From a plasmid, in sequence record NZ_CP070571.1: a stretch of DNA of 64,000 nt, one strand, 5' to 3'. Each line of letters opens with the position of its first letter. The first letter of the stretch is position 1. The notes beneath the pieces are model-generated. The model was not told the origin of the DNA. It did no database searches and worked only from the letters and a program-made list of their open reading frames with translations. Shown one piece after another: positions 27,279-60,389 of this stretch. Position numbers and translations under genes: made by a program.

Positions 27279-30245
27279 ATGCCGCGTCGCTTGATCCTCT
27301 CGGCCACGGAGCGGGACACCCTGCTTGCGCTGCCGGAAAGCCAGGATGACCTGATCCGCTACTACACCTTCAACGACTCCGACCTGTCGCTGATCCGCCA
27401 GCGACGCGGCGACGCCAACCGCCTCGGCTTCGCCGTGCAGCTCTGCCTGCTGCGCTACCCCGGTTACGCGCTGGGAACCGACAGCGAGCTGCCCGAGCCG
27501 GTCATCCTGTGGGTGGCGAAGCAAGTCCAGGCCGAGCCGGCGAGCTGGGCAAAGTACGGCGAGCGCGACGTGACCCGTCGCGAGCATGCCCAGGAACTGC
27601 GCACCTACCTGCAACTGGCCCCGTTCGGCCTGTCCGACTTCCGCGCCCTGGTGCGCGAGCTAACCGAGCTGGCCCAGCAGACCGACAAAGGCTTGCTGCT
27701 GGCCGGTCAGGCCCTGGAGAGCCTACGGCAGAAACGACGCATCCTGCCGGCGCTGAGCGTGATTGACCGGGCCTGCTCGGAAGCCATTGCGCGAGCCAAT
27801 CGGCGGGTCTACCGCGCCCTGGTCGAACCACTCACGGACTCGCATCGGGCCAAGCTGGACGAGCTGTTGAAGCTCAAGGCCGGCAGCAGCATCACCTGGT
27901 TGACCTGGCTGCGCCAGGCACCGCTGAAACCCAACTCTCGGCACATGCTGGAACACATCGAGCGGCTGAAGACATTTCAGTTGGTGGACTTGCCCGAAGG
28001 CCTGGGCCGGCACATCCACCAGAACCGCCTGCTCAAGCTGGCCCGCGAGGGTGGGCAGATGACGCCCAAAGACCTCGGTAAGTTCGAGCCGCAGCGCCGC
28101 TACGCGACCCTGGCCGCCGTGGTGCTGGAGAGCACCGCGACCGTGATCGATGAGCTGGTCGATCTGCATGACCGCATCCTGGTCAAGCTGTTCAGCGGCG
28201 CGAAGCACAAGCATCAGCAGCAGTTCCAGAAGCAGGGCAAGGCGATCAACGACAAGGTGCGCCTGTACTCCAGGATCGGCCAGGCGCTGCTGGAAGCGAA
28301 GGAAAGCGGCAGCGACCCCTATGCCGCCATCGAGGCGGTGATTCCCTGGGACGAGTTCACCGAGAGCGTCAGCGAGGCCGAGCTGCTGGCCCGGCCGGAA
28401 GGCTTCGACCACCTGCACCTGGTCGGCGAGAACTTCGCCACCCTGCGCCGTTACACGCCGGCCTTGCTGGAGGTGCTGGAACTGCGCGCCGCGCCGGCCG
28501 CGCAAGGCGTGCTGGCAGCCGTGCAGACCCTGCGTGAGATGAACGCCGACAACCTGCGCAAGGTGCCGGCCGATGCACCCACGGCCTTCATCAAGCCGCG
28601 CTGGAAGCCGCTGGTGATCACCCCGGAAGGCCTCGACCGGAAATTCTACGAAATCTGCGCCCTGTCCGAGCTGAAGAACGCCCTGCGCTCCGGCGACATC
28701 TGGGTCAAGGGCTCGCGGCAGTTCCGCGACTTCGACGACTACCTGCTGCCGGCCGAGAAGTTCGCCGCACTCAAGCGCGAGCAGGCCCTGCCCCTGGCGA
28801 TCAACCCGAACAGCGACCAGTACCTGGAAGAGCGTTTGCAGCTGCTGGACGAGCAGTTGGCCACCGTCACCCGCCTGGCCAAGGACAACGAGCTGCCCGA
28901 TGCCATCCTCACCGAGTCAGGGCTGAAAATCACCCCGCTGGATGCGGCGGTGCCGGATCGGGCGCAGGCGCTGATCGACCAAACCAGCCAGTTACTGCCG
29001 CGCATCAAGATCACCGAACTGCTGATGGACGTGGACGACTGGACGGGCTTCAGCCGCCACTTCACCCACTTGAAGGACGGGGCCGAGGCCAAAGACAGGA
29101 CGTTGCTGCTGTCCGCAATCCTCGGTGATGCGATCAACCTCGGGCTGACCAAGATGGCCGAGTCGAGCCCCGGCCTGACCTACGCCAAGCTGTCCTGGCT
29201 GCAAGCCTGGCACATCCGCGACGAAACCTATTCGGCGGCCTTGGCCGAGCTGGTCAACCACCAGTATCGCCACGCCTTTGCCGCCCACTGGGGCGACGGC
29301 ACGACCTCATCCTCCGATGGCCAGCGCTTCCGCGCGGGTGGCCGGGGCGAGAGCACCGGGCACGTCAACCCGAAGTACGGTAGCGAGCCGGGACGGCTGT
29401 TCTATACCCATATCTCCGACCAGTACGCGCCGTTCAGCACCCGCGTGGTGAATGTCGGCGTCCGCGATTCCACCTATGTGCTCGACGGCCTGCTGTACCA
29501 CGAGTCCGACCTGCGGATCGAGGAGCACTACACCGACACGGCCGGCTTCACCGATCACGTCTTTGCCCTGATGCACCTGCTAGGCTTCCGCTTCGCGCCG
29601 CGCATCCGCGACCTCGGCGAAACCAAGCTGTACGTGCCGCAGGGCGTGCAAGCCTACCCGACGTTGCGCCCGCTGATCGGCGGCACCCTGAACATCAAGC
29701 ACGTGCGTGCCCACTGGGACGACATCCTGCGCCTGGCCAGCTCGATCAAGCAGGGCACCGTCACCGCCTCGCTGATGCTGCGCAAGCTCGGCAGCTACCC
29801 GCGCCAGAACGGACTGGCCGTGGCCCTGCGCGAGCTGGGCCGGATCGAGCGCACGCTGTTCATCCTGGACTGGCTGCAAAGTGTTGAACTGCGCCGCCGC
29901 GTGCATGCCGGCCTGAACAAAGGTGAGGCGCGCAACTCGCTGGCCAGGGCGGTGTTCTTCAACCGCCTTGGGGAAATCAGGGATCGGAGCTTCGAGCAGC
30001 AGCGCTACCGGGCCAGCGGCCTCAACCTGGTGACGGCGGCTATCGTGCTGTGGAACACGGTGTACCTGGAACGCGCCACCCAGGGGTTGGTCGAGGCCGG
30101 CAAGCCGGTGGACGGCGAGCTGCTGCAATTCCTGTCGCCGCTGGGCTGGGAGCACATCAACCTAACCGGCGATTACGTCTGGCGGCAGAGCCGCAGACTG
30201 GAAGACGGGAAGTTTCGGCCCTTACGGATGCCCGGAAAACCTTAG
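27279..30245 (+). CDS. tnpA: Tn21-subfamily (Tn1721/Tn501-like) transposase TnpA, 988 aa
   Basis: 988-aa Tn3-family TnpA. The C-terminus runs into the 38-bp IR. Confidence 0.85.
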
Positions 30246-30278
30246 CGTACGATTTTTTCCGAATTCTGCGGGCTCCCC
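30241..30278. repeat. 38-bp terminal IR (IRtnp), Tn1721/Tn501 type
   Basis: Reverse complement is GGGGAGCCCGCAGAATTCGGAAAAAATCGTACGCTAAG. Overlaps the tnpA stop. Confidence 0.8.
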
Positions 30279-30543
30279 TTAATGACCAGCACAGTCGTGA
30301 TGGCAAGGTCAGAATAGCGCTGAGGTCTGCCTCGTGAAGAAGGTGTTGCTGACTCATACCAGGCCTGAATAGCTTCATCATCCAGCCAGAAAGTTATGGA
30401 GCCACGGTTGATGAGGGCTTTATTGTAGGTGGGCCAGTTGGTTATTTTGAACTTTTGCTTTGCCACGGAACGGTCTGCGTTGTCGGGAAGATGCGTGATC
30501 TGATCCTTCAACTCAGCAAAAGTTCGATTTATTCAACAAAGCC
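30279..30543 (-). mobile_element. IS903-type fragment (IRL plus first ~75 codons of tnp), 265 bp, directly abutting the Tn IR
   Basis: IR GGCTTTGTTGAATAAATCGAACTTTTGCTGAGTTGAAGGATCAG (reverse strand, ending at 30543). Encodes MKDQITHLPDNADRSVAKQKFKITNWPTYNKALINRGSITFWLDDEAIQAWYESATPSSRGRPQRYSDLAITTVLVIK, then diverges. Confidence 0.85.
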
Positions 30544-30847
30544 CATTCAGTCCTCAATTTGTGCATTTTTTAAACGAAAAAAGGGTGTCTAATACGGTGA
30601 AATCATAGTATTACCAAAGTAATAAATAAAAAGTTATTTAAATCAGTAATTTAGATTTGATTTGTAATACCTGGGTAATACCGCAGCATGGCTAAATTTT
30701 GTTTTTTTTCTTTTAAATCAGTGCGATAGCGTGATTTATCACGCTGCGTTAGGTGTATAGCAGGTTAAGGGATAAAAAATCATCTTTTTTTGGTAGGGCG
30801 ATCTCCGTAGGTTAAGGGGCATTTGGCTAAAAAGCGTCCTATTCTTT

Positions 30848-31092
30848 GATGGTCATGCTTGCATGACCATCTGAGCAACCAAAAACTACAGATAAACTAC
30901 AGATAAACTACAAAAAACGTTTTGCCTTAGTGTTGTAAGACTACAAATAGACTACAATAAAACTACAAATAAACTACAAAAAAACGTGACAGACTACAAA
31001 TAGACTACAATAAAACTACAGATAAACTACAAAACTCGATTGACCCCTTCTTACGAGTGTTGTAGAGTCATTTTCATACAACGGAGGGGGTT
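30848..31092 (+). promoter_or_regulatory. orphan oriT-like / StbA-binding region: 24-bp perfect palindrome plus about ten 11-bp direct repeats CTACA(A/G)ATA(A/G)A
   Basis: Palindrome GATGGTCATGCTTGCATGACCATC (30848-30871). Repeats ctacagataaa ctacagataaa ctacaaaaaac ... ctacaaatagactacaataaaactacaaataaa ... (30885-31047) lie immediately upstream of the stbA-like gene. The same architecture recurs at 55144-55303 beside the relaxase operon. Confidence 0.6.
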
Positions 31093-31479
31093 ATGAATAA
31101 ACCAGCAGATCTGAAACCCCGCAACTTATCGGCTGCTGTCAGATTGCGCCTAAATGAAATCGAGAACTGGCTGGACAGAGGGCTAACGCGGCATGAAATT
31201 GCTGAAATCCTCGACAGCGAATACAGCTTTTCGGTAACAGCCAAAGGGCTTGAGATGGCACTGTATAGAACGCGGCAAAACCGAAAAAATGTATTGCACA
31301 ATACGCATGATAAGAGTAGCGCGAAGGGTGCAGCGGAAAGTGTATTGCACAATACACAACCGTCTGAGCCTGAAGTGCAGGAAAGTAAAAAAGCAGAGAG
31401 TCCCGGCATTATTGATAAAGAATTCTTCAAGAAAATCGGTGAGAATTTCGACCCTAAGAAGTTCAACAAAAAATTCTGA
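31093..31479 (+). CDS. StbA-like DNA-binding protein, copy 1 (128 aa); about 60% identical to the copy at 54650-55084
   Basis: MNKPADLKPRNLSAAVRLRLNEIENWLDRGLTRHEIAEILDSEYSFSVTAKGLEMALYRTRQ aligns with MKKATELEPRNLSAAVRTRLDEIEGWLDKGVSRQEIAQLLDAEYSFSVTPKALEMALYRARL. Contains two GTATTGCACAATAC palindromes in its 3' half. Confidence 0.6.
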   Translation: MNKPADLKPRNLSAAVRLRLNEIENWLDRGLTRHEIAEILDSEYSFSVTAKGLEMALYRTRQNRKNVLHNTHDKSSAKGAAESVLHNTQPSEPEVQESKKAESPGIIDKEFFKKIGENFDPKKFNKKF

Positions 31480-31487
31480 GGTGATTT

Positions 31488-31562
31488 ATGAAAGTAGCGG
31501 TAATTAATTACAGTGGCAGTGTTCGTAAAACCTTAATTTCATCTTACCTGTTAGCCCCGCGC
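31488..31562 (+). pseudogene. StbB-like ATPase gene, first 25 codons, truncated by IS903B
   Basis: MKVAVINYSGSVRKTLISSYLLAPR (compare MKIAVMNYSGSVGKTIISSYLLYPR at 54637), then the IS903B IR at 31563. Confidence 0.7.
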
Positions 31563-32619
31563 GGCTTTGTTGAATAAATCAGATTTCGGGTAAGTCTCCC
31601 CCGTAGCGGGTTGTGTTTTCAGGCAATACGCACGCTTTCAGGCATACCTGCTTTCGTCATTTTGTTCAGCGCTCGTACCAGGGCCATAGCCTCTGCAACC
31701 TGACCATCGTAGTCACGCAGTGTCAGTGAACCTCCGAACAGCTGTTTTACCCGGTACATCGCCGTTTCCGCTATCGAGCGACGGTTGTAATCTGTTGTCC
31801 ATTTCCACCGCGCATTACTCCCGGTCAGCCGCTGATTCGCAACAGCACGGTTACGGTCTGCATATTCACCGGGCCAGTAACCCGCGCCTTTTCGGGGCGG
31901 GATAAGCGCGCTGATTTTCTTACGCCGCAGTTCATCGTGACAGAGTTGGGTGTCGTAAGCGCCGTCTGCCGATGCTGCCCTGATTTTTCTGTGAGTCTGC
32001 CGGATAAGACCCGGGAAGGCTTCTGAGTCCGTCACATTGTTCAGCGACAGGTTTGCACAGATGATTTCATGTGTGTTGCTGTCAACTGCCAGATGCAACT
32101 TTCGCCATATACGACGGCGTTCCTGGCCATGCTTTTTGACTTTCCATTCGCCTTCACCAAAGACCTTCAGCCCGGTGGAATCAATCACCAGATGCGCGAT
32201 TTCACCCCGGGTGAACGTTTTGAAACTGACATTAACCGACTTTGCGCGCTTGCTGACACTGGTGTAATCCGGGCAGCGCAACGGAACATTCATCAGTGTA
32301 AAAATGGAATCAATAAAACCCTGTGCAGCCCGCAGGGTCAACCTGAACACGCGTTTAATGACCAGAACGGTGGTGATGGCGAGATCAGAATAGCGCTGAG
32401 GTCTTCCCCGTGATGAAGGCGTTGCCGACTCATACCAGGCCTGAATAGCTTCATCATCCAGCCAGAAAGTTATGGAGCCACGGTTGATGAGGGCTTTATT
32501 GTAGGTGGGCCAGTTGGTTATTTTGAACTTTTGCTTTGCCACGGAATGGTCTGCGTTGTCGGGAAGATGCGTGATCTGATCCTTCAACTCAGCAAAAGTT
32601 CGATTTATTCAACAAAGCC
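31563..32619 (-). mobile_element. IS903B, complete, 1,057 bp
   Basis: 18-bp-plus IRs GGCTTTGTTGAATAAATC at 31563 and its complement ending at 32619. Length exactly 1,057 bp. Confidence 0.9.
31619..32587 (-). CDS. IS903B transposase (IS5 family, IS903 group)
   Basis: MKDQITHLPDNADHSVAKQKFKITNWPTYNKALINRGSITFWLDDEAIQAWYESATPSSRGRPQRYSDLAITTVLVIKRVFRLTLRAAQGF...KAGMPESVRIA. Confidence 0.9.
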   Translation of the reverse strand: MKDQITHLPDNADHSVAKQKFKITNWPTYNKALINRGSITFWLDDEAIQAWYESATPSSRGRPQRYSDLAITTVLVIKRVFRLTLRAAQGFIDSIFTLMNVPLRCPDYTSVSKRAKSVNVSFKTFTRGEIAHLVIDSTGLKVFGEGEWKVKKHGQERRRIWRKLHLAVDSNTHEIICANLSLNNVTDSEAFPGLIRQTHRKIRAASADGAYDTQLCHDELRRKKISALIPPRKGAGYWPGEYADRNRAVANQRLTGSNARWKWTTDYNRRSIAETAMYRVKQLFGGSLTLRDYDGQVAEAMALVRALNKMTKAGMPESVRIA

Positions 32620-33111
32620 GTCTGTGTTGTAAAATGGCGCCGAAAGCCCGGCGTAGCCGGTTGCCGGGCTATAAATTCTGCCACCCTACCCCCTGCCCTG
32701 ATTAGCCTTAACTCGCGAACAGCAATGAAGAAGTCAAAGTAATCCCTTTTAACCCCGGTGAGCGGGCTTTACGGCGTTTACGACGTAAAGGGCGTGATTT
32801 CCGGGGCCTAAGCGGCGGCAGCTTGCTGCTGACGCTTAGGGGGATGTTCATCAACTATTTCAGCGACACCAGGGAACTTAACACGGTAGCTGCAAAGCCC
32901 TAATCCCGCTCACCGCCACGCAGCTGCCGTACGTCCCCCACGGGGGTGCGCAGTGCTGCGCGCGGGAACGGCGGCCCGTCTGCGGGACGCGGCGCCGTAC
33001 TGCGCGTTAGCGGCCGCACGCGGCCGGTTACGGGGGACACTCCGCCATACGACCAGCGACCCGCTGAGCTGCACAATCCACAGATAACACAAGCTACATA
33101 CATGTCGATAT

Positions 33112-33940
33112 GGGAATCGGCCCACCTTGCCGGGCGCCGGTGCCGTGTGGAAATCCGCCCACCTTGCCGCGCGCCGGTGCCGTGTGGGAATCCGCCCACC
33201 TTGCCGCGCGCCGGTGCCGTGTGGGAATCCGCCCACCTTGCCGGGCGCCGGTGCTGTGTGGAAATCCGCCCACCTTGCCGCGCGCCGGTGCCGTGTGGGA
33301 ATCCGCCCACCTTGCCGCGCGCCGGTGCCGTGTGGGAATCCGCCCACCTTGCCGGGCGCCGGTGCTGTGTGGAAATCCGCCCACCTTACCGGGCGCCGGT
33401 GCCGTGTGGGAATCCGCCCACCTTACCGGGCGCCGGTGCCGTGTGGGAATCCGCCCACCTTACCGGGCGCCGGTGCTGTGTGGAAATCCGCCCACCTTGC
33501 CGCGCGCCGGTGCCGTGTGGGAATCCGCCCACCTTGCCGCGCGCCGGTGCCGTGTGGGAATCCGCCCACCTTGCCGGGCGCCGGTGCTGTGTGGAAATCC
33601 GCCCACCTTGCCGCGCGCCGGTGCCGTGTGGGAATCCGCCCACCTTGCCGCGCGCCGGTGCCGTGTGGGAATCCGCCCACCTTGCCGGGCGCCGGTGCTG
33701 TGTGGAAATCCGCCCACCTTACCGGGCGCCGGTGCTGTGTGGAAATCCGCCCATCTTGCCGGGCGCCGGTGCCGTGTGGGAATCCGCCCACCTTGCCGGG
33801 CGCCGGTGCTGTGTGGAAATCCGCCCACCTTACCGGGCGCCGGTGCTGTGTGGAAATCCGCCCATCTTGCCGGGCGCCGGTGCCGTGTGGGAATCCGCCC
33901 ACCTTACCGGGCGCCGGTGCTGTGTGGAAATCCGCCCATC
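33112..33940. repeat. tandem array of ~22 x 37-bp repeats (consensus TGGGAATCCGCCCACCTTGCCGCGCGCCGGTGCCGTG), head-to-tail with no spacers; iteron-like
   Basis: Read directly in the sequence. Unit variants (GGG/GGA, GCG/GGG, CCG/CTG, TTG/TTA/CTTG) recur with a 3-unit (111-bp) super-period. Lies about 50 bp upstream (on the coding strand) of the C-terminal fragment of a Rep_3-type repA. Confidence 0.85.
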
Positions 33941-33989
33941 TTCATGACAAAAATTTGTCAAATGACAGGCTCATGTGTGCTGATTTATG

Positions 33990-51884: not shown

Positions 51885-51922
51885 CTTAACGTGAGTTTTC
51901 GTTCCACTGAGCGTCAGACCCC
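51885..51922. repeat. Tn3/Tn1331 38-bp right terminal IR
   Basis: Reverse complement is GGGGTCTGACGCTCAGTGGAACGAAAACTCACGTTAAG. Confidence 0.9.
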
Positions 51923-53376: not shown

Positions 53377-53407
53377 ACCATTTTATTGATTATGGATTGT
53401 GCAATCC
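53366..53407. promoter_or_regulatory. two copies of a 14-bp palindrome (GGATTGCACAAACC, GGATTGTGCAATCC) at the mpr-like start / promoter: putative operator
   Basis: The first copy overlaps the start codon and RBS of the minus-strand gene; the second lies 18 bp upstream. The identical motif occurs three times inside the stbA-like CDS at 54789-54883. Confidence 0.55.
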
Positions 53408-53512
53408 ACTTTTATTTTTGGGCGTTCCCTGCGGGCGGGCTTTCGTGCTGCGCATCGAGCCAGGCAAGCTGTCTCGCCCCTTCGGGCTTCAATCCCTAAC
53501 GCAATCGAGGCC

Positions 53513-53556: not shown

Positions 53557-53925
53557 TCAGTGAAGCAGGAACGTTATAGCCGCCGCGCCGAGCGCTCCAC
53601 CAACGAAGGAACAGACAACCGTGATAATCAGAATCTGCCTGATAAGCGCTTGCGAAAACCCTGTTTGCGCTCCGGCCAGACGTTCAAAAAATTGGTCGCT
53701 AACCTTCTGCTCCTTCTTCAGAGTGTTGACCAGCTCGCGCTGGCTTGCGATCACTTCTGTTTTCGCCACCTCAGATGATTTCTTTATTTCATCGGAGGCT
53801 TTATCCAGCCGTTCTACTGTTTCGGTAACGCTTGTGGTTACGCTTTCCAGTTTTGAGGTGATTTCTTTCGCATCGCCTAAAAACCAGTCCATCAGGATAT
53901 CTAATTTATCAGGTTGCTTTTCCAT
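53557..53925 (-). CDS. StbC-like protein with C-terminal TM helix (122 aa)
   Basis: Third gene of the stbABC-like operon. Coiled-coil N-terminal part and hydrophobic C-terminus (ILIITVVCSFVGGALGAAAITFLL). Confidence 0.55.
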   Translation of the reverse strand: MEKQPDKLDILMDWFLGDAKEITSKLESVTTSVTETVERLDKASDEIKKSSEVAKTEVIASQRELVNTLKKEQKVSDQFFERLAGAQTGFSQALIRQILIITVVCSFVGGALGAAAITFLLH

Positions 53926-53926
53926 A

Positions 53927-54637
53927 TTATTCAGCCGTTAATATTTCAAAGGTACGATCAAGATTACGTTTAACCGGCAGCGCTAATTTCATCCAGCGAT
54001 AACGCCGCGCAGCCGCCGCGCGTTCGTCGGCATCAGTGCAGGATTTAGCTTTCGCTTTAAATGTTTCTGGATCTTCAGCCAGCAGTTCTTCAAACGAAAT
54101 TTTGTGATACGCGAGGTATTCATAAATTTCACTTTCAAAAACGGCGGCATCTTTATGAATAGAGGCTTTTTTAGAATCCTTCGCCCATTCATACACTGAA
54201 GCAATATCTTCCTGCGGAGTTGCTTTAATGCGGTTAGGCAGAAGAACAATTTTGGATTTTGGAACGCCAGCAGCGCTTAACGCGAGAGCGGTCTTAATAC
54301 TTTCCTGCCATGCTTTATCATCCGGGGTAACAGGAATAAGATATTTATCAAATTCATCAATTGCACCCTCGTATTTTGTCATGGTAGAAAGAAAACGCTC
54401 TACGTTCGACGCGCCAATATCCACGATGGCGTTATCTTCAAATACGATTTCTTCAACCAGTTGACCAAAATTATCCCCGGTCAAACTCATTACTTCATCA
54501 ACACCCAAATCAGCCGCCGACATATTGATTGTCTCGATGGCAAAGAATTTTGCGCCAGCCATGCGAGGATACAGCAGGTATGACGAAATAATAGTTTTGC
54601 CGACACTGCCACTGTAGTTCATTACTGCAATTTTCAT
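53927..54637 (-). CDS. StbB-like ParA-superfamily ATPase with deviant Walker A (236 aa)
   Basis: MKIAVMNYSGSVGKTIISSYLL is a Walker A-like P-loop. Located between the stbA-like and stbC-like genes next to oriT, as in IncW/IncN stb operons. Confidence 0.65.
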   Translation of the reverse strand: MKIAVMNYSGSVGKTIISSYLLYPRMAGAKFFAIETINMSAADLGVDEVMSLTGDNFGQLVEEIVFEDNAIVDIGASNVERFLSTMTKYEGAIDEFDKYLIPVTPDDKAWQESIKTALALSAAGVPKSKIVLLPNRIKATPQEDIASVYEWAKDSKKASIHKDAAVFESEIYEYLAYHKISFEELLAEDPETFKAKAKSCTDADERAAAARRYRWMKLALPVKRNLDRTFEILTAE

Positions 54638-54649
54638 CTATTCGCTCCT

Positions 54650-55084
54650 TTAGAAACCTTTTTTATTACCTACGCTACCTTTGAATGAGGACGCAACTTT
54701 TTTTGCCTCATCCCCGATTTTTTTAAAATCGGTATCGGACAGAAATTCTTTGTTCCCGCCCATATCCTCAACTAACTTTTCTGATTCTGGATTGTGCAAT
54801 CCAGTATCTTCCGGTTTTGCTTCTTCCTGCGGTTTTGGATTGTGCAATCCATTTTTTACCGTACTTTCTGGATTGTGCAATCCACCTTTTTTACGCTTTA
54901 ACCTGGCCCGGTACAATGCCATTTCCAGCGCTTTCGGTGTTACGGAAAAGCTATATTCAGCATCAAGCAGTTGAGCAATCTCTTGCCTCGATACACCTTT
55001 ATCCAGCCAGCCCTCGATCTCATCTAAACGAGTTCGTACTGCTGCCGAAAGGTTACGAGGTTCTAACTCGGTTGCCTTTTTCAT
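54650..55084 (-). CDS. StbA-like DNA-binding protein, copy 2 (144 aa)
   Basis: First gene downstream of the oriT direct repeats. N-terminal 62 aa conserved with copy 1 (31093). 3' half carries three GGATTGTGCAATCC palindromes encoding the repeated GLHNP peptide. Confidence 0.65.
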   Translation of the reverse strand: MKKATELEPRNLSAAVRTRLDEIEGWLDKGVSRQEIAQLLDAEYSFSVTPKALEMALYRARLKRKKGGLHNPESTVKNGLHNPKPQEEAKPEDTGLHNPESEKLVEDMGGNKEFLSDTDFKKIGDEAKKVASSFKGSVGNKKGF

Positions 55085-55559
55085 ACCCTCTCCTTCGTCT
55101 GCATTTGAATGTACGTTAACCCGTTTATCCCGTCAACCCGATTTTGTAGTTTTTTGGTAGTTTTTTAGTAGTTGGTTGCTTTTGTTTGTAGTCTATATGT
55201 AGTTATTCTGTAGTTTTTACCACAATTCAACTATCTAGGTGTGTAGTCTTTCTGTAGTCTATTTGTAGTGGCTGGTAAAAAAACTTTCATGCAAGCATGA
55301 AAGTGGTGAATGTGAACGCTTTTTGAGCGATTCACTTGCACGTAACACCGGTTTCTCCCTTAAAAAAGGCGTGGTATGGTATCCCTTAACGGCTATACAC
55401 CATACGCAATTACGATTTTCATCGTAAATGCTTGAAAACAAAACAAATTATTCTAATTTGTGTTTTAATGTGTAATACGCAACGTATTACACATGTGGAA
55501 TTAAGCCGCATATATGCTAGATTTGAATGTATTACATCGGTATTACACAAAGGAAACCT
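55085..55559. promoter_or_regulatory. oriT region with divergent promoters: 11-bp direct repeats (CTACA(A/G)A...), 20-bp palindrome CTTTCATGCAAGCATGAAAG (55284-55303), and 23-bp palindrome GTGTAATACGCAACGTATTACAC (55470-55492)
   Basis: Located between the divergent stb operon and the traK-like/T4CP/relaxase operon, as oriT is in IncW/IncN plasmids. The direct repeats 55144-55270 mirror those at 30885-31047. Confidence 0.65.
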
Positions 55560-55907
55560 ATGCCATCTATCAGTTTAAGAGTGACCGAAGCGCAAAAAAT
55601 CGACCTTGAATACCGTTCGGAGGGCAACGTATCGGAGTACATCAAGCAACAGCTTTTTGGACAAAAAGAGAGTGCCAGTGAAGTGATCGCCCGGCTTGAT
55701 AAACTGCTGGAACGTTCATCTTCAGAGCAGCAAGCCGCCGGACGAGATCGATACATCGAGGCAATGTTGATTGAGGTGTTATTGATACTTCGCCAGGTGA
55801 GTAAAGCAGATGCGCAGAAAGTTGCCGGTGGTGAAATTCGCCGGTTAGGGCTGGAGCCGTGGTCAGCAGAGCTGGCCCAGGAGAGAGAGGAACAGAGTCA
55901 TGAATGA
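55560..55907 (+). CDS. relaxosome accessory protein (TrwA/TraK-like, RHH), ~115 aa
   Basis: MPSISLRVTEAQKIDLEYRSEGNVSEYIKQQLF is an N-terminal ribbon-helix-helix. First gene of the Dtr operon; overlaps the T4CP start. The track start at 55527 is probably too early (RBS AGGAAA precedes 55560). Confidence 0.7.
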   Translation: MPSISLRVTEAQKIDLEYRSEGNVSEYIKQQLFGQKESASEVIARLDKLLERSSSEQQAAGRDRYIEAMLIEVLLILRQVSKADAQKVAGGEIRRLGLEPWSAELAQEREEQSHE

Positions 55908-57477
55908 AGCGGATAAGGGCAAAATCTGCCTGGGGGCATTGCTTTTTACCCCCCTTGTTACGTGGTTTATCGCGGCGAAAGCCTTGTATGGTTTTACGCC
56001 AAAAGATGCGCGTGAACGTCTGGTTTTACTTATTCAGCAGACTTTTGATTTATGGCCTTTATGGGGTGCTTTATTAGTCGGTGAAATTATTGCCATCATA
56101 GGCTTAATCATATTTTTCAAATTTAATCACCAGATATTTAAAGGTGCACCATTTAAGAAAATATATCGTGGTACGCGGCTTGTTTCTCAGCGGGCTTTAG
56201 CATCCATAACTAAAGAAAGAGAGCCGCAAATAACAATAGCCGATATTCCAATCCCTACAAAAGCGGAAGGTACACATATTTCAATAGCCGGGGCGACCGG
56301 TGTTGGTAAATCAACAATCTTTGCTGAAATGATGAAATGTTGCTTGATGCGTGGAAAAATGCAACGTGTTGCCTCAAATAAAGACCGCATGATAATCCTC
56401 GATCCAGATGGCGATTTCCTTTCTCGTTTTTATAAAAAAGGCGATAAGATTTTAAATCCCTATGATGCCAGAACAGAAGGGTGGGTATTTTTCAACGAAA
56501 TAAAAAGTGATTTTGACTTTGAGCGATTCGGTGTTTCTATCGTACCTACAGCGAAGGATTCGCAAACAGAAGAATGGAATGGATACGGTCGTCTTTTATT
56601 TACCGAGGTATCCCGTAAAGTATTTAACACAAGTCGAAACCCAACGATGGAAGAAGTATTCTACTGGACAAATGAAGTACCACTGGAAGAACTTGAAGAA
56701 TATGTCAGAGGCACTAAAGCACAGGCTTTATTTGCTGGTAGCGGTCGGGCCGTTGGTAGTGCTCGCTTTGTGCTTAGTAATAAACTTGCCGCTCACCTGA
56801 AAATGCCAGCAGGGAACTTCTCAATTCGTGAATGGCTGGAAGATCCGAAAGGCGGGAATCTGTATATCACCTGGACAGATGAAATGCGTGAAGCCTTGAA
56901 ATCGCTTATTTCATGCTGGACAGATAGCATATTTTCTATTGTGTTAGGTATGAGCAAGAGCAACTCCCGTAAAATCTGGACGTTTATAGATGAACTGGAA
57001 TCCCTTGATTACCTGCCATCATTACGTGATGCGTTAACAAAAGGTCGTAAAAAAGGACTACGGGTTGTCACCGGCTATCAGTCTTATTCGCAGGTCATTA
57101 GCATCTATGGCAGTGATGTAGCTGAAACCCTTCTGTCTAACCATCGTACATCGGTTGTTATGGCCGCTGGTCGCCTGGGTGAAAGAACCCTCGAATTTGT
57201 CTCTAAATCATTGGGGGAGATTGAGGGCGAAAGAGAAAAAACGGGGATTAGCCGCCGCTTTGGTCAGTTGGGAACCAAAAATACCAATGATGATCACAAG
57301 CGCGAGCGGGCTGTAACGCCAACCGAAATCGCCACGCTGGATGATCTGACCGGCTACATCGCGTTTCCAGGAAATCTGCCAGTGGCTAAATTTGAGACTC
57401 ATCACGTTAACTACACTCGTTCTAACCCTGTACCGGGCGTGGTCTTACGTGAAAGCACCGCATTTGCAGGAATGTAA
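55900..57477 (+). CDS. type IV coupling protein (TrwB/TraJ/VirD4-like), 525 aa
   Basis: N-terminal TM helices, Walker A GATGVGKS and Walker B. Located between the accessory protein and the relaxase. Confidence 0.85.
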   Translation: MNEADKGKICLGALLFTPLVTWFIAAKALYGFTPKDARERLVLLIQQTFDLWPLWGALLVGEIIAIIGLIIFFKFNHQIFKGAPFKKIYRGTRLVSQRALASITKEREPQITIADIPIPTKAEGTHISIAGATGVGKSTIFAEMMKCCLMRGKMQRVASNKDRMIILDPDGDFLSRFYKKGDKILNPYDARTEGWVFFNEIKSDFDFERFGVSIVPTAKDSQTEEWNGYGRLLFTEVSRKVFNTSRNPTMEEVFYWTNEVPLEELEEYVRGTKAQALFAGSGRAVGSARFVLSNKLAAHLKMPAGNFSIREWLEDPKGGNLYITWTDEMREALKSLISCWTDSIFSIVLGMSKSNSRKIWTFIDELESLDYLPSLRDALTKGRKKGLRVVTGYQSYSQVISIYGSDVAETLLSNHRTSVVMAAGRLGERTLEFVSKSLGEIEGEREKTGISRRFGQLGTKNTNDDHKRERAVTPTEIATLDDLTGYIAFPGNLPVAKFETHHVNYTRSNPVPGVVLRESTAFAGM

Positions 57478-57479
57478 AT

Positions 57480-60389
57480 ATGCTGAACATTACGACGATT
57501 ACCCGCCAGCGTGTCGATAAGGTTGTTGATTACTATGCTGATGGCGCAGACGATTACTATGCGAAAGACGGTAACGCGATGCAGTGGCAAGGCGCTGGCG
57601 CGGAAGAACTGGGCTTAACCGGCGAGGTAGAACAAAAACGGTTTGCGAAATTGCTTGATGGCAAAGTAACGGATGACATTTCCGTGATGCGTAAAACGGC
57701 CAACAGCGAAAGCAAAGAACGATTGGGATACGATCTTACGTTTTCCGCGCCGAAAGGCGTTACGCTTCAGGCACTGGTCAACGGTGATAAACGTATCATT
57801 GAAGCGCACGATCGGGCGGTCACTAAAGCCATCGAGGAAGCGGAACGGCTGGCACTAGGCCGCTTTACCGTCAATAAAAAAACGCACGTTGAAAACACGA
57901 ATAAGCTGATTGTCGGCAAATTTCGACACGAAACGTCACGCGAGCTAGACCCGGATTTGCACACCCATGCCTTTGTAATGAACCTCACCAAAACCAGCGA
58001 TGGTAAATGGCGTTCGCTCACGAATGACGGCATTGTGAATTCGCTTACGTTATTGGGTAACGTTTACAAATCCGAGCTGGCAAGAGAGCTGGAGCTGGCC
58101 GGTTACAACCTGCGTTATGATCGGAATGGTACGTTTGATTTGGCGCATTTCAGCCAGGAGCAGATAGCCCAATTCAGCCAGCGCAGCCAGCAGATTGAGG
58201 CCGAGTTAGCAAAGAATGGTTTAAGCCGTGAAACGGCCAGCCATGAGCAAAAAAATGCGGCCGCTCTGAAAACTCGTAAAAGCAAAGGCGAAGTAGATCG
58301 CGATGTACTCTATGAGGGCTGGAAAAACCGCGCCAAAGAGCTTCAGATTGATTTTGATAGCCGGGAGTGGAAAGGTGCGGCCAACGACGATATAGCGCGG
58401 AATACGCAGCCAGCGGCGCTGGAAAAGCCTATCGAGTACCAGGCTGACAAGGTAATGACCTTTGCCATTCGTTCACTTACCGAACGTCAATCGGTGATTA
58501 CCGAGCGGGAGCTGATGGACGTGGCGATGAAGCATGGCTATGGCCGCTTAACCCTCGATGATATTCGGGCTGCGAGAGAACGGGCCATAACCTCCGGCAA
58601 CCTCATCAAAGAAGAAGCAACATACGCAGCGGCCACGACCAATAAAAAACAGCAGAACGTAGCAATGACCCGCGAACAATGGGTAACGGAACTGGTGAAA
58701 GCTGGCCGCAATAAAGATGAGGCCCGTAAACTCGTAGATAAGGGCATCACAAACGGGCGGCTGGTACAGCAAAAGCCGCGTTTTACCACACAGTTAGCTC
58801 AACAACGCGAACGCAACATACTGAAGATGGAGCGGGAAGGGCGCGGAAAGATCCAGACCCCATACACTCGCGAGTTTAGCGAGGGCTGGTTAGCCAGCAG
58901 AACGTTAAAACCCGAACAGTTAAAAGCGGTTATGGGAATTATTCATACCCCCAACCAGTTTATTTCTGTACATGGGTTTGCCGGTACTGGCAAAAGTTAT
59001 ATGACCAAATCGGCAGCGGATTTTCTAAAAGAGCAGGGCGTACACGTCACCAGTCTTGCCCCCTACGGTAGCCAGGTTAAAGCGCTTCAGGCTGAAGGGC
59101 TGGAATCTCGCACACTCCAGTCTTTCCTCCGGGCCTCAGATAAAAAAATTGGCCCCGGCTCAGTAGTTTTTATTGACGAAGCAGGGGTAATCCCGGCCCG
59201 CCAGATGGAGGAAACCATGCGCGTGATCCGCGATGCGGGCGCACGAGCGGTATTCCTGGGCGATACTAAACAGACTAAAGCCGTCGAAGCGGGTAAACCT
59301 TTCGAGCAGCTTATTAAAGCCGGTATGGAAACGGCCTATATGAAAGATATTCAGCGCCAGAAAGACCCGGAATTGCTGAAAGCCGCGCTAAATGCAGCAG
59401 AAGGGAAAATAAAGGCGTCGTTGACCCACGTAACCAGCATCGTAGAGGAAAAAAATCATGATCAGCGCTACCGCCGCATTGTCGGGGATTACGTGGCAAT
59501 GCCGCCGACAGACCGGGCTAACGCCCTGATCATCACCGGCACGAACGACAGCCGGAAAAAAATTAATGAGTACATTCAGGCCGAGCTGGGGCTAAAAGGC
59601 CAGGGTATCAATTACCCGCTTCTGAACCGTCTTGATACCACTCAGGCCCAGCGGCAGCACAGCAAATATTACGAAAAAGGAGCCGTGATTATCCCGGAAC
59701 GGGATTACAGCAACGGGCTGAAACGCGGGGCCGTTTATACCGTTCTCGATACCGGCCCCGGCAATAAACTTACGGTAAGCGACGGCAGCGGCGACACAAT
59801 CGCATTTTCACCGGCGCGATTTTCCAAATTATCCGTGTACTCAGTTGAAAAAACGGAGCTGGCCGTAGGCGACCAGGTAAGGATCACCCGTAACGATGCG
59901 CATCTGGATTTAGCGAACGGCGACCGTTTTAAGGTAAAAGGCGTCCAGAGTGGTGAGGTACTGCTGGAGAACGAGAAAGGGCGACTGGTAAAAATTGATG
60001 CCAACAAACCTATGTATTTAGGGCTGGCTTACGCTTCGACCGTTCATAGCGCTCAGGGGCTAACCTGCGACAAGGTTTTTATCAATATGGATACCCGATC
60101 ACTCACAACGGCCAAAGATGTTTATTACGTGGCTGTCACCCGCGCTAAACACGAAGCCGTCATTTACACAGACGATGAGAAGAAGCTGGATAAAGCGGCC
60201 AGCCGTGAAGGGTTCAAAACCGCCGCGCTTGAGCTGGAACAACTCAAACGCTATGCCAAAGAGCAGCAGCATGATGCCCGCGAAAAAGGCCGAGACAAAA
60301 CCGAGCCGACGCAGGAAAAAGACAATTCCAAGCGTAAAGGCAAAGGTCATGACAAAAATAACGACGAGAGAGCATTTACCTCGCTCTAA
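57480..60389 (+). CDS. MOBF relaxase-helicase (TrwC/TraI-like), 969 aa
   Basis: N-terminus MLNITTITRQRVDKVVDYYADGADDYYAKDGNAMQWQGAGAEELGL...FSAPKGVTLQAL...GKFRHETSRELDPDLHTHAFVMNLT closely parallels R388 TrwC as remembered (catalytic Tyr pair region and HxH metal site). C-terminal RecD-like helicase Walker A GFAGTGKS. Confidence 0.9.
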   Translation: MLNITTITRQRVDKVVDYYADGADDYYAKDGNAMQWQGAGAEELGLTGEVEQKRFAKLLDGKVTDDISVMRKTANSESKERLGYDLTFSAPKGVTLQALVNGDKRIIEAHDRAVTKAIEEAERLALGRFTVNKKTHVENTNKLIVGKFRHETSRELDPDLHTHAFVMNLTKTSDGKWRSLTNDGIVNSLTLLGNVYKSELARELELAGYNLRYDRNGTFDLAHFSQEQIAQFSQRSQQIEAELAKNGLSRETASHEQKNAAALKTRKSKGEVDRDVLYEGWKNRAKELQIDFDSREWKGAANDDIARNTQPAALEKPIEYQADKVMTFAIRSLTERQSVITERELMDVAMKHGYGRLTLDDIRAARERAITSGNLIKEEATYAAATTNKKQQNVAMTREQWVTELVKAGRNKDEARKLVDKGITNGRLVQQKPRFTTQLAQQRERNILKMEREGRGKIQTPYTREFSEGWLASRTLKPEQLKAVMGIIHTPNQFISVHGFAGTGKSYMTKSAADFLKEQGVHVTSLAPYGSQVKALQAEGLESRTLQSFLRASDKKIGPGSVVFIDEAGVIPARQMEETMRVIRDAGARAVFLGDTKQTKAVEAGKPFEQLIKAGMETAYMKDIQRQKDPELLKAALNAAEGKIKASLTHVTSIVEEKNHDQRYRRIVGDYVAMPPTDRANALIITGTNDSRKKINEYIQAELGLKGQGINYPLLNRLDTTQAQRQHSKYYEKGAVIIPERDYSNGLKRGAVYTVLDTGPGNKLTVSDGSGDTIAFSPARFSKLSVYSVEKTELAVGDQVRITRNDAHLDLANGDRFKVKGVQSGEVLLENEKGRLVKIDANKPMYLGLAYASTVHSAQGLTCDKVFINMDTRSLTTAKDVYYVAVTRAKHEAVIYTDDEKKLDKAASREGFKTAALELEQLKRYAKEQQHDAREKGRDKTEPTQEKDNSKRKGKGHDKNNDERAFTSL

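Follow-up and report, generated by a model that had tools for sequence, protein, structure and literature searches.

Architecture of the locus

Within the 64,000-nt window of plasmid NZ_CP070571.1, a segment of 1,019 bp (30544–31562) carries an IncN1-type transfer origin (oriT), an intact stbA gene and a stub of stbB, bordered by a truncated IS903 copy on the left and a complete IS903B on the right (Table 1). The preliminary description had recognised an orphan module of oriT, StbA repeats and stbA with no relaxase or T4CP gene attached, and this reading held; its start, given as 30848, did not, as the true unit begins 304 bp further left and the part containing nic had been omitted. Aligned with R46 and with intact IncN plasmids, pRHBSTW-00140_3 and NZ_CP072498.1 being among the sequences used, the relic is collinear from the ATG of traK to codon 25 of stbB. 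The traK–stbA intergenic oriT is complete, comprising candidate TraK sites, an IR2 hairpin, nic, an inverted repeat and 11 direct repeats.

Table 1. Features of the relic, its borders and the resident IncN3 module (positions in the window)
Feature	Position	Strand	Basis or remark
38-bp terminal inverted repeat of a Tn3-family (TnAs1/Tn1721-type) transposon	30241–30278		left border, truncates the IS903 fragment
Truncated IS903 copy, first 265 bp	30279–30543	-	terminal IR 30526–30543; alignment to 5′ end of right IS903B
traK remnant	30544–30546	-	ATG start codon alone left; traK runs leftwards from CAT in R46, pRHBSTW-00140_3 and NZ_CP028931.1
A+T-rich traK-proximal part of oriT	30547–30719	+	inverted repeat found here
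IR2-type recognition hairpin, AGCGTGAT-TT-ATCACGCT	30728–30745	+	directly 5′ of nic region
nic region, GCGTTAGGTGT then ATAGCAGGTTAAGGGATAAAAA	30746–30778	+	match to pKM101 TraI substrate
Inverted repeat, GATGGTCATGC-TT-GCATGACCATC	30848–30871		between nic and direct repeats
11 phased ACTACA direct repeats	30885–31038	+	11-bp register; clusters 3+4+4, gaps 33 and 20
stbA promoter-like site, TTGACC-17-TAGAGT	31040–31068	+	consensus match alone
stbA, intact, 128 aa	31093–31479	+	NCBIfam StbA_2 match
stbB pseudogene stub, 25 codons	31488–31562	+	alignment to R46 StbB, 24/25 identical
Complete IS903B	31563–32619	-	transposase 31619–32587; cuts stbB
Resident IncN3 module	53557–60389		for comparison; traK and T4CP gene also present
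IncN3 stbCBA	53557–55084	-	resident module
IncN3 oriT	55085–55559	-	predicted nic between 55397 and 55396
Full-length MOBF relaxase of IncN3 module	57480–60389

A complete IncN1-type transfer origin

The hairpin and nic region together (30722–30778) are identical at 55 of 57 bases to the experimentally nicked pKM101 oriT57 oligonucleotide, and they match the pre-nic 11-mer co-crystallised with pKM101 TraI (11/11) and the post-nic 22-mer (22/22). As in IncN1 origins, GCGTTAGGTGT|ATAGC is preceded here by the IR2 hairpin, and the origin lies between traK and stbA with stbA leading in the collinear alignment. Using the oligonucleotide table of the pKM101 TraI paper (PMC9868005), we predict a nick on the + strand at 30756|30757, which would place stbA at the leading end. 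The hairpin (DNA fold −7.5 kcal/mol, z = −2.4) has its counterpart in that of the pKM101 oriT35 substrate (PMC9868005 Table S1), and it is perfect in the relic, with an A at 30741 where the R46/pKM101 type has a G. The preliminary description had staked its case on a nic/IR2-like sequence being found in the region, and one is indeed present, though 92 bp upstream of the start that it gave.

On the side of traK, a relaxosome accessory gene, GTAATAC/GTATTAC repeats occur at 30608, 30664 and 30675. Seven of the 12 GTAATAC matches in the window fall in the traK-proximal parts of its two oriTs, where 2.5 would be expected in the window as a whole, and we regard these repeats as candidate TraK binding sites.

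The inverted repeat that follows nic (DNA fold −9.6 kcal/mol, z = −3.9) had been described as a perfect 24-bp palindrome; there is an inverted repeat at this place, but its arms are 11 bp long and the central TT is not self-complementary. The core that it was said to share with the second locus was borne out, TCATGCTTGCATGA being invariant in the relic, in the IncN3 copy (55284–55303) and in R46. The direct repeats, earlier counted as about ten, comprise nine strict CTACARWWARA matches (0.25 expected by chance) and two degenerate ones, making eleven ACTACA units. The phased pattern CTACA-N6-CTACA occurs 12 times in the window, always at one of the two oriT loci, compared with an expectation of 0.03, and pRHBSTW-00140_3, an intact IncN plasmid, has the same array ahead of its stbA.

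The relic thus resembles the R46/pKM101/pCU1 oriT (MOBF11; TraI, TraK) in its position between traK and stbA, the IR2 hairpin, the nic sequence, the TCATGCTTGCATGA inverted repeat, an 11-bp direct-repeat array between nic and stbA, and the stbA-leading direction of transfer. It differs in lacking traK, traJ and traI, in its traK-proximal third (about 73% identity to R46) and in the subtype of its repeats, of the form ACTACA(A/G)AT.. in 11 units where R46 has [AGT]TACA[AT]C in 13.

StbA and the stbB stub

StbA scores 204 bits against the NCBIfam equivalog StbA_2 (NF041290; cutoff 100), while a Pfam search returned no family for StbA, StbB or TraK. Its AlphaFold model has an N-terminal helix-turn-helix domain (pLDDT about 90) followed by a disordered C-terminal half (<55); the model was built on a two-sequence alignment, and therefore only the N-terminal domain is confidently modelled. 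The best structural match in the PDB is 7PC1, the DNA-binding domain of R388 StbA (prob 0.96, rmsd 1.9 Å), to which BLASTP aligns the protein with 30% identity over 57 aa. Searched by sequence against the PDB, StbA drew a single spurious hit, ribosomal bS20, and kinship with R388 StbA is drawn from the fold and the pairwise BLASTP. In accordance with membership of the StbA family, the gene lies next to oriT and upstream of stbB with its own direct repeats ahead, and the protein joins the conserved N-terminal tri-helical domain to a variable, disordered C-terminal half. This exact protein sequence is found on at least 1000 contigs.

R388 (IncW) has the same layout in its StbA/stbDR/StbB system: its StbA consists of two domains, the N-terminal one a helix-turn-helix, and arrays of short direct repeats in an 11-bp register lie ahead of the gene, between nic and stbA, with a ParA-like stbB behind it. 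The R388 repeat sequence, TTGCATCAT, is a different one. By this analogy the ACTACA repeats are putative StbA binding sites, the counterpart of the stbDRs; binding of StbA to its own repeats has been demonstrated only in R388, where StbA and the stbDRs are enough to keep the plasmid stable, and where losing stbB puts an end to transfer only if StbA and its repeats are there as well (PMC3098194). An inverted TACAAC half-site overlaps the promoter-like site ahead of stbA, which has a ribosome-binding site, GGAGGGGG, at about 31083, and the gene is probably autoregulated.

Compared domain by domain, StbA proves to be mosaic, with the N-terminal domain nearer to IncN3 and the C-terminal domain, like StbB, nearer to R46. 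The DNA-binding domain is 69% identical to that of IncN3 StbA and only 34% to that of R46, whereas the C-terminal domain is 43% identical to its IncN3 counterpart. An earlier estimate that 62 N-terminal residues could be aligned with the product of 54650–55084 was right as to the strength of that stretch, residues 1–62 having the 69% identity, but the alignment extends over the full length, at 51%. The specificity of StbA for DNA lies in its N-terminal domain (bioRxiv 10.1101/2022.04.29.490116).

The reported first 25 codons of an stbB-like gene cut by IS903B were found as described, the stub abutting the IS903 inverted repeat GGCTTTGTTGAATAAATC at 31563. A functional StbB has about 236–238 aa and a deviant Walker A, GSVGKT; the stub, a pseudogene, reads GSVRKT. 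The underlying GGT to CGT change is common to the independently truncated relic of NZ_CP028931.1 and to NZ_CP072498.1, and by this alignment stbB was crippled already before truncation. With 25 codons of stbB left, the relic corresponds to the ‘stable but non-transferable’ state of R388.

Insertion sequence and transposon borders

In identical contexts elsewhere, the right-hand IS903B carries the annotation of an IS5-family transposase. On the left, ORF 30242–30511 is the transposase N-terminus of the truncated IS903, which has the same orientation as the complete element. The preliminary description's IS903 fragment and transposon end were both found abutting the module: the 265-bp fragment adjoins the 38-bp terminal sequence, which we take to be a Tn1721-type IR. 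In NZ_CP027162.1, where the context is identical, the transposon's tnpA (27279–30245) has a TnAs1-family annotation, and the arrangement, ΔIS903B-stbA-IS903B beside ΔTnAs1, is the same as here. We considered an IS903 composite transposon and rejected it: the left copy has been reduced to 265 bp by the transposon end, and no matching 9-mers flank either element. Since no 9-bp target duplication was found around the right-hand IS903B, the context arose by IS-mediated rearrangement.

Lineage and distribution of the relic

The relic is 92–98% identical to IncN1-type sequences, its nearest intact relative being the IncN plasmid pRHBSTW-00140_3 (92% identical DNA, 96% identical StbA). With its junctions it is found, 100% identical, in IncR plasmids that carry no IncN3 segment. 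The two IS903 junctions are present in at least 550 PLSDB plasmids, the left one in at least 554 records and the right one in at least 592. Because of the identical copies in IncR plasmids without IncN3, we assign the orphan module, by sequence, to the IncR parent of an IncR–IncN3 fusion plasmid. The IncN3 segment begins near 51920, and about 20 kb of IncR backbone lie in between. The relic already resided in the multiresistance region of the IncR plasmid before that plasmid fused with an IncN3 plasmid, and the IncN3 partner supplied the window's working transfer module. The window belongs to the IncR–IncN3 KPC fusion family (PMC8333104); a search of PLSDB for the 89-kb fusion plasmid gave no full-coverage match.

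The segment is thus real but common, and it has been annotated before: in the IncR plasmid pC275-2 as ΔIS903B-stbA-IS903B (PMC11792461) and in the IncR plasmid pKPN945B through an oriT of the ‘oriT-R46 family’ (PMC11537061). Likened by description, pKPN945B, which is reported with RepE, fits a longer variant of the relic beside repE. The nic site, the completeness of oriT, the stbB stub and the StbA mosaic are not reported in those papers, and the new details are modest ones: the mosaic, the Walker-A change in stbB and a hybrid oriT with its crossover around nic. As far as the window is concerned, there is nothing unusual in this: plasmid fusion has brought an already known relic beside a related working module.

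Two further arrangements bear on the history of the segment. A second, independently bounded relic keeps the same oriT and stbA core in IncFIA/IncR plasmids, with IS26 on its left and, presumably, an IS1 end on its right. In NZ_CP072498.1, a natural hybrid, the left half of oriT is R46-like, as are the traI-traJ-traK genes there, and the right half is that of the relic, including the stbB::IS903B junction; the two halves cross over within a 50-bp interval (30742–30791) that contains nic. This hybrid is a hint that the oriT may still be active, while ordinary homologous recombination in the sole well-conserved stretch could also have produced it.

The preliminary description had taken the segment for a second copy diverged from the functional one. 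Instead, the two modules belong to the IncN1 and IncN3 lineages and were joined by plasmid fusion; the alternative that it had also offered, a trace left by another, related conjugative plasmid, was supported, the relic being of IncN1 type. Its figure of 30–40% divergence from the functional copy is sound (about 28–31% at aligned positions, about 40% with gaps counted), but this is not divergence within one lineage. The shared gene order and kinds of element, and DNA about 70% identical between the two modules, might be read as an in-situ duplicate of the resident oriT–stbA module that drifted apart in the plasmid lineage. We see virtually no chance of this, as an identical segment lies in IncR plasmids without the IncN3 module, identity is far higher to IncN1-type sequences, the identity pattern of StbA and StbB is mosaic between IncN3 and R46, and IncR backbone parts the modules. 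Nor do we give any real credence to the direct repeats being replication iterons of a nearby Rep gene, the objection foreseen in the preliminary description: short tandem repeats in an A+T-rich region do resemble iterons, and 2 kb off there is a 37-bp tandem array of another kind, but no rep ORF adjoins the repeats, intact IncN plasmids have the identical array in the nic–stbA interval with repA over 10 kb distant, and the layout parallels the StbA-binding stbDRs of R388.

Possible roles of the relic

IncR plasmids play a major part in carrying resistance genes, KPC and NDM among them; they have no transfer genes, and the route by which they spread is debated. MOB-suite and oriTfinder label such plasmids mobilisable since an oriT is found (PMC12607884, PMC11537061); much of this labelling rests on an oriT, and the relic is such an oriT. 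We are confident that it is best explained overall as a relic of an IncN1 plasmid (R46/pKM101/pCU1 family, MOBF11); its most likely role is that of a cis-acting oriT for IncN1 helpers, together with a stabiliser made of StbA and its repeats. The data establish its identity, borders, completeness, lineage and prevalence, whereas nicking, mobilisation, StbA binding and stabilisation are inferences. With TraI, TraK, StbB, the T4SS and the coupling protein provided in trans by an IncN1 helper, the + strand would be nicked after GGTGT and transferred with stbA leading, which would make an otherwise non-conjugative IncR replicon mobilisable. StbA bound to the repeats probably aids plasmid positioning and stability, while by analogy with R388 it would hold the relic oriT shut without StbB. 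With a complete IncN1 origin and a near-perfect nic, the helper to consider would be IncN1, not IncF, IncC or IncN3, and with StbA intact and StbB missing, StbB may be the limiting trans-factor.

Published transfer data set limits on this reading, and the papers that mention the relic describe a part for it in mobilisation as unverified. Reported IncR mobilisation is rare (about 1e-8), with IncC/IncHI1 and not IncN helpers (PMC12607884), which counts against a role in mobilisation. Compared by description, IncN3-driven movement of an IncFII/IncR KPC plasmid, at about 1e-6, was attributed to IS/Tn cointegrates (PMC9430514). The stabilising role may also be superfluous, as IncR plasmids already have parAB.

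Whether the relic serves its present hosts is a separate matter. It may be an inert hitch-hiker between IS903 copies in a successful resistance region, its oriT and stbA idle, which we think rather unlikely. Consistent with idleness, stbB is truncated and carries the Walker-A change, the context stems from IS-mediated rearrangement with the target duplication absent, and IncR plasmids have toxin-antitoxin systems besides their own parAB. Near-100% identity over hundreds of plasmids reflects recent spread, and selection for function, purifying selection included, therefore cannot be read from it. Against idleness, the cis elements of oriT, the stbA ORF, its promoter and the repeats are all intact while both neighbouring genes are destroyed; the independently bounded relic of IncFIA/IncR plasmids keeps the same core; and the hybrid oriT of NZ_CP072498.1 would record an interaction, in the interval around nic, between the relic and an incoming IncN1 plasmid. 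That the relic is a useful cassette rather than debris, in the joint form of the three readings that follow, is likewise only a tentative proposal. If it acts in mobilisation, any co-resident IncN1 plasmid would mobilise IncR resistance plasmids, and the relic may be a landing pad for relaxase-mediated oriT–oriT recombination (cf. NZ_CP072498.1). If it acts as a stabiliser, StbA and the repeats would add one that is independent of a motor. If its StbA cross-talks with the resident system, an idea that arises because the DNA-binding domain is IncN3-like and the C-terminal domain IncN1-like, orphan StbA could bind the IncN3 repeats, ignore IncN3 StbB and so alter how often the fused plasmid conjugates.

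The relic is redundant in this fusion plasmid, and the IncN3 relaxosome probably does not use its oriT. The resident IncN3 module, of the kind carried by 34–35 kb IncN3 plasmids such as pKP2648-34, is alike in architecture and differs in being complete, and functional in related 89-kb plasmids. The preliminary description had raised the possibility that the TrwC-like IncN3 relaxase still recognises the relic, so that transfer could start from either origin. Several features speak for this: GGTGT|ATAGC, the core of the nick site, is common to both origins, as is TTAAGGGATA downstream of it, with 9 of 11 pre-nic bases identical; the same GTAATAC heptamers lie on their traK side; the N-terminal domains of StbA are similar, and both arrays have the ACTACA core in a layout of three units and a 33-bp gap; and pCU1 TraI tolerated mutations in the hairpin or the TAG region alone in vitro (PMC2943615). 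Nevertheless, the proximal arm of the hairpin is unrelated (CACGCT in the relic vs ATCGTA in IncN3), the hairpin stands 11 nt from nic in the relic vs 14 nt in IncN3, and of the 14 bases 5′ of nic only 10 are shared; for R388 TrwC exactly these 14, the proximal arm and single-stranded stretch, tolerate no change in vivo (PMC4176350). IncN3 TraI is 52% identical to R46 TraI and 49% to TrwC, TraK is 25% identical, and the orphan StbA, for want of a StbB to match it, should hold this origin shut. Judged from these sequences, recognition by the resident relaxase is unlikely, and a live second origin distinctly improbable. A search of 72,556 PLSDB plasmids with 64-mers of IncN3/IncN1 hybrid oriTs gave no exact match, which is still compatible with cross-recognition; eight records match one of the hybrid 64-mers at about 90%, and these seem to represent a third lineage of oriT.

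Extent and lineage of the relic

The plasmid that holds the orphan module is a fusion of IncR and IncN3 and a member of the pCfr-36049cz / 89-kb Czech KPC family; its IncN3 segment starts near 51920, matches IncN3 plasmids of 34-35 kb at 99.3-99.7%, and is separated from the module by ~20 kb of IncR backbone. The preliminary description had presented the module as a second copy, diverged by about 30-40% from the functional one. That estimate agrees with our alignment to the 53557-55526 copy (about 30% divergence at aligned positions, about 40% counting gaps), but the reading does not hold, as the module and its junctions are 100% identical in IncR plasmids lacking IncN3 DNA (e.g. NZ_CP027162.1). 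Queries of 60 bases over the left and right IS903 junctions retrieved at least 554 and at least 592 PLSDB records, respectively, and the exact StbA protein is present in at least 1000 contigs. The closest intact plasmid is the IncN plasmid pRHBSTW-00140_3 (92% DNA identity), where the corresponding segment leads into traK-traJ-traI at one end and stbABC at the other. R46 also matches well around nic, but its array has 13 units of [AGT]TACA[AT]C, a different subtype, and its StbA is 139 aa long. Taken together, the identity in IncN3-free IncR plasmids, the prevalence of the junctions and the IncN relative indicate that the module was left in the IncR parent by an IncN1 (R46/pKM101/pCU1-type) plasmid and is not a diverged duplicate. 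The earlier observation is therefore confirmed with corrected boundaries, and its interpretation was right in part: the module is an orphan with a nic site, left by a second conjugative plasmid and truncated by IS903B. It was wrong in part, in that the module belongs to the IncR parent and did not diverge from the resident one.

The left edge of the relic lies at 30544, directly after the inverted repeat of an IS903 fragment. This fragment is truncated by a 38-bp terminal sequence (30241-30278) from the end of a Tn3-family transposon, which we take to be a Tn1721-type IR. Alignment with R46 and other IncN plasmids places the traK start codon at 30544-30546 (CAT), so the relic retains the entire traK-stbA intergenic region and, of traK, only the ATG. 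All features previously listed for 30848-31562 were found, although the unit begins further left. On the right, the stbB stub meets the IS903 terminal repeat directly at 31563. Since the relic's IS903 elements show no 9-bp target duplications, the relic and its IS903 copies are not a clean composite transposon. Just right of IS903B lies a G+C-rich tandem array (33111-33942; 37-bp unit, 22.5 copies, 93% matches) that yields long spurious ORFs in every frame, and near which published maps place 'delta-repB' and IS1X3.

The relic is common and already annotated: a deltaIS903B-stbA-IS903B arrangement was described in the IncR plasmid pC275-2 (PMC11792461), an 'oriT-R46 family' oriT in the IncR plasmid pKPN945B (PMC11537061; PMC12310702), and an oriT is the reason why over half of the IncR plasmids with a single replicon are classed as 'mobilisable' in typing (PMC12607884). 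Its novelty is accordingly low, and what is added here is the exact nic assignment, the completeness of the oriT, the stbB Walker-A lesion that the relic forms have in common, the domain mosaic of StbA and a natural hybrid oriT.

Features of the relic and related loci (window coordinates unless another record is named)
Feature	Position	Size	Remarks
IS903 fragment	30279-30543	265 bp	left neighbour of relic
stbA	31093-31479	128 aa	intact; NCBIfam StbA_2 equivalog
stbB stub	31488-31562	25 codons	truncated by IS903B
IS903B	31563-32619		complete; same orientation as left IS903 fragment
Resident relaxase	57480-60389	969 aa	MOBF, full length
Natural hybrid oriT	NZ_CP072498.1 18477-24732		crossover at window 30742-30791
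ATTGCACAAT core copies	31288-31305, 31339-31356		orphan stbA
ATTGCACAAT core copies	54788-54803, 54836-54851, 54869-54884		IncN3 stbA
ATTGCACAAT core copy	53393-53408		non-coding gap stbC/SprT-like gene; half-site after it
ATTGCACAAT core palindromes	R46 locus L003 20690-20800		R46 stbA

The nic site and a natural hybrid origin

The relaxase TraI of pKM101 binds, nicks and religates the oligonucleotide TGTGATAGCGTGATTTATCGCGCTGCGTTAGGTGT/ATAGCAGGTTAAGGGATAAAAA (PMC9868005, Table S1). Positions 30722-30778 are identical to it at 55 of 57 positions, with no difference in the 11-mer of the TraI co-crystal or in the 22 post-nic bases, and one of the two mismatches renders the hairpin at 30728-30745 (AGCGTGAT-TT-ATCACGCT) perfect. 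This match places the predicted nick on the + strand between 30756 and 30757; stbA would thus lead the transferred strand into the recipient, as it does in IncN and IncW plasmids (PMC3098194). The nic/IR2-like sequence, whose absence would by the preliminary description have refuted its reading, is thus present, 92 bp left of the start coordinate given there, and the oriT is complete.

A longer form of the relic, 98.2% identical, adjoins IncFIA repE in IncFIA/IncR plasmids, with IS26 on its left; of traK it keeps about 140 bp, and of stbB 63 codons; its right-hand end is presumably an IS1 end. The IncR plasmid NZ_CP072498.1 is identical to the window right of nic, including the stbB::IS903B junction, and R46-like left of nic, where it runs into intact traK, traJ and traI. 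The switch falls within a 50-bp interval that contains nic, which hints at relaxase-mediated oriT-oriT recombination. This is a hint and not proof, because homologous recombination would leave the same pattern if it took place in this stretch, the only one that is strongly conserved. Separately, when an artificial hybrid of IncN3 pre-nic and IncN1 post-nic sequence was compared with PLSDB, eight plasmids (e.g. NZ_CP025944.3 8992-9054 and NC_010261.1 7596-7658; one plasmid is 8 kb) matched it in their nic region at about 90%; they seem to represent a third branch of this family of oriTs.

Possible use of the orphan origin

By analogy with pKM101 and pCU1, an IncN1 helper would nick the relic and mobilise the replicon, and would also be the source of the ParA-like StbB. 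As in R388 (PMC3098194), StbA and its repeats would help stable inheritance and, without StbB, would hold the origin closed.

Use of the orphan oriT by the resident IncN3 relaxosome is unlikely. The two origins share the GGTGT/ATAGC core and traK-side GTAATAC heptamers, and pCU1 TraI tolerates hairpin or TAG changes in vitro (PMC2943615), but the nic-proximal hairpin arm is unrelated between them, the hairpin-to-nic spacing is 11 nt versus 14 nt, and of the 14 bases 5' of nic only 10 are shared, in exactly the stretch where the R388 relaxase TrwC permits no change in vivo (PMC4176350). Moreover, IncN3 TraI and TraK are 52% and 25% identical to the R46 proteins, the IncN3 relaxase is no nearer to R46 TraI than to TrwC, and PLSDB holds no exact hybrid origin.

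In the published plasmid pCfr-36049cz, which is otherwise identical, the MOBF relaxase (NZ_MF497781.1 72989-74833) is cut short, with IS26 after it. Given the full-length relaxase here, the window comes from a relative whose transfer module is intact, in agreement with the conjugative 89-kb plasmids from the Czech family.

The window has 12 GTAATAC heptamers, of which seven form two clusters, one on the traK side of each oriT (30608-30681; 55472-55546); both clusters contain two heptamers spaced by 11 bp. These heptamers are candidate targets of the relaxosome accessory protein TraK, common to IncN1 and IncN3 despite the divergence of TraK.

StbA, its repeats and the stbB stub

What had been called a perfect 24-bp palindrome at 30848-30871 is an inverted repeat, GATGGTCATGC-TT-GCATGACCATC, whose 11-bp arms flank a non-self-complementary TT centre. 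To its right, eleven ACTACA units (about ten in the earlier count) are phased strictly at 11 bp and grouped as 3 + 4 + 4. Nine units fit CTACARWWARA exactly versus 0.25 expected by chance, and the 64-kb window has 12 instances of phased CTACA-N6-CTACA (0.03 expected), all of them in the relic and the second oriT.

The stbA-like gene that follows is intact and scores 204 bits against the StbA_2 equivalog (cutoff 100). In the AlphaFold model, the N-terminal helical domain is confident (pLDDT about 90) and the C-terminal half disordered. Among 350,542 PDB chains the model comes closest to the R388 StbA DNA-binding domain (7PC1; prob 0.96, rmsd 1.9 A, 54 columns), with a weak E-value, as expected of a domain this small. 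In R388 StbA, specificity for the repeats resides in the N-terminal domain, and the C-terminal domain is believed to interact with StbB (bioRxiv 10.1101/2022.04.29.490116). Residues 1-62 of the orphan StbA are 69% identical to IncN3 StbA and 34% to R46 StbA; thereafter identity is 76% to R46 and 43% to IncN3. By these alignments, the protein is a mosaic of domains. Repeat type tracks the N-terminal domain, with ACTACA in the relic and the IncN3 copy and another unit in R46; relic and IncN3 arrays also both open with a cluster of 3 units and a 33-bp gap. Since the repeats follow the N-terminal domain and both copies carry ACTACA, the two StbA proteins of this plasmid may bind each other's repeats.

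In the stbB stub, CGT replaces GGT at codons 12-13 (31521-31526), and the Walker-A motif reads GSVRKT in place of GSVGKT. The short relic with its IS903 boundaries, the longer one bounded by IS26 (L004 5556-5747) and NZ_CP072498.1 all have this change, which is absent from stbB of intact IncN (G there) and IncN3. Thus, stbB was probably already disabled in the common ancestor of the short and long relics, or else the short relic arose from the long one.

The window holds six copies of the palindrome core ATTGCACAAT (0.15 expected), five of them within the two stbA genes, in which they specify a repeated 'LHN' motif. The arms of the core co-vary by lineage with symmetry kept (GTATTG..CAATAC in IncN1, TGGATTG..CAATCCA in IncN3), which suggests that the stbA coding sequence contains an operator acting at the DNA level.
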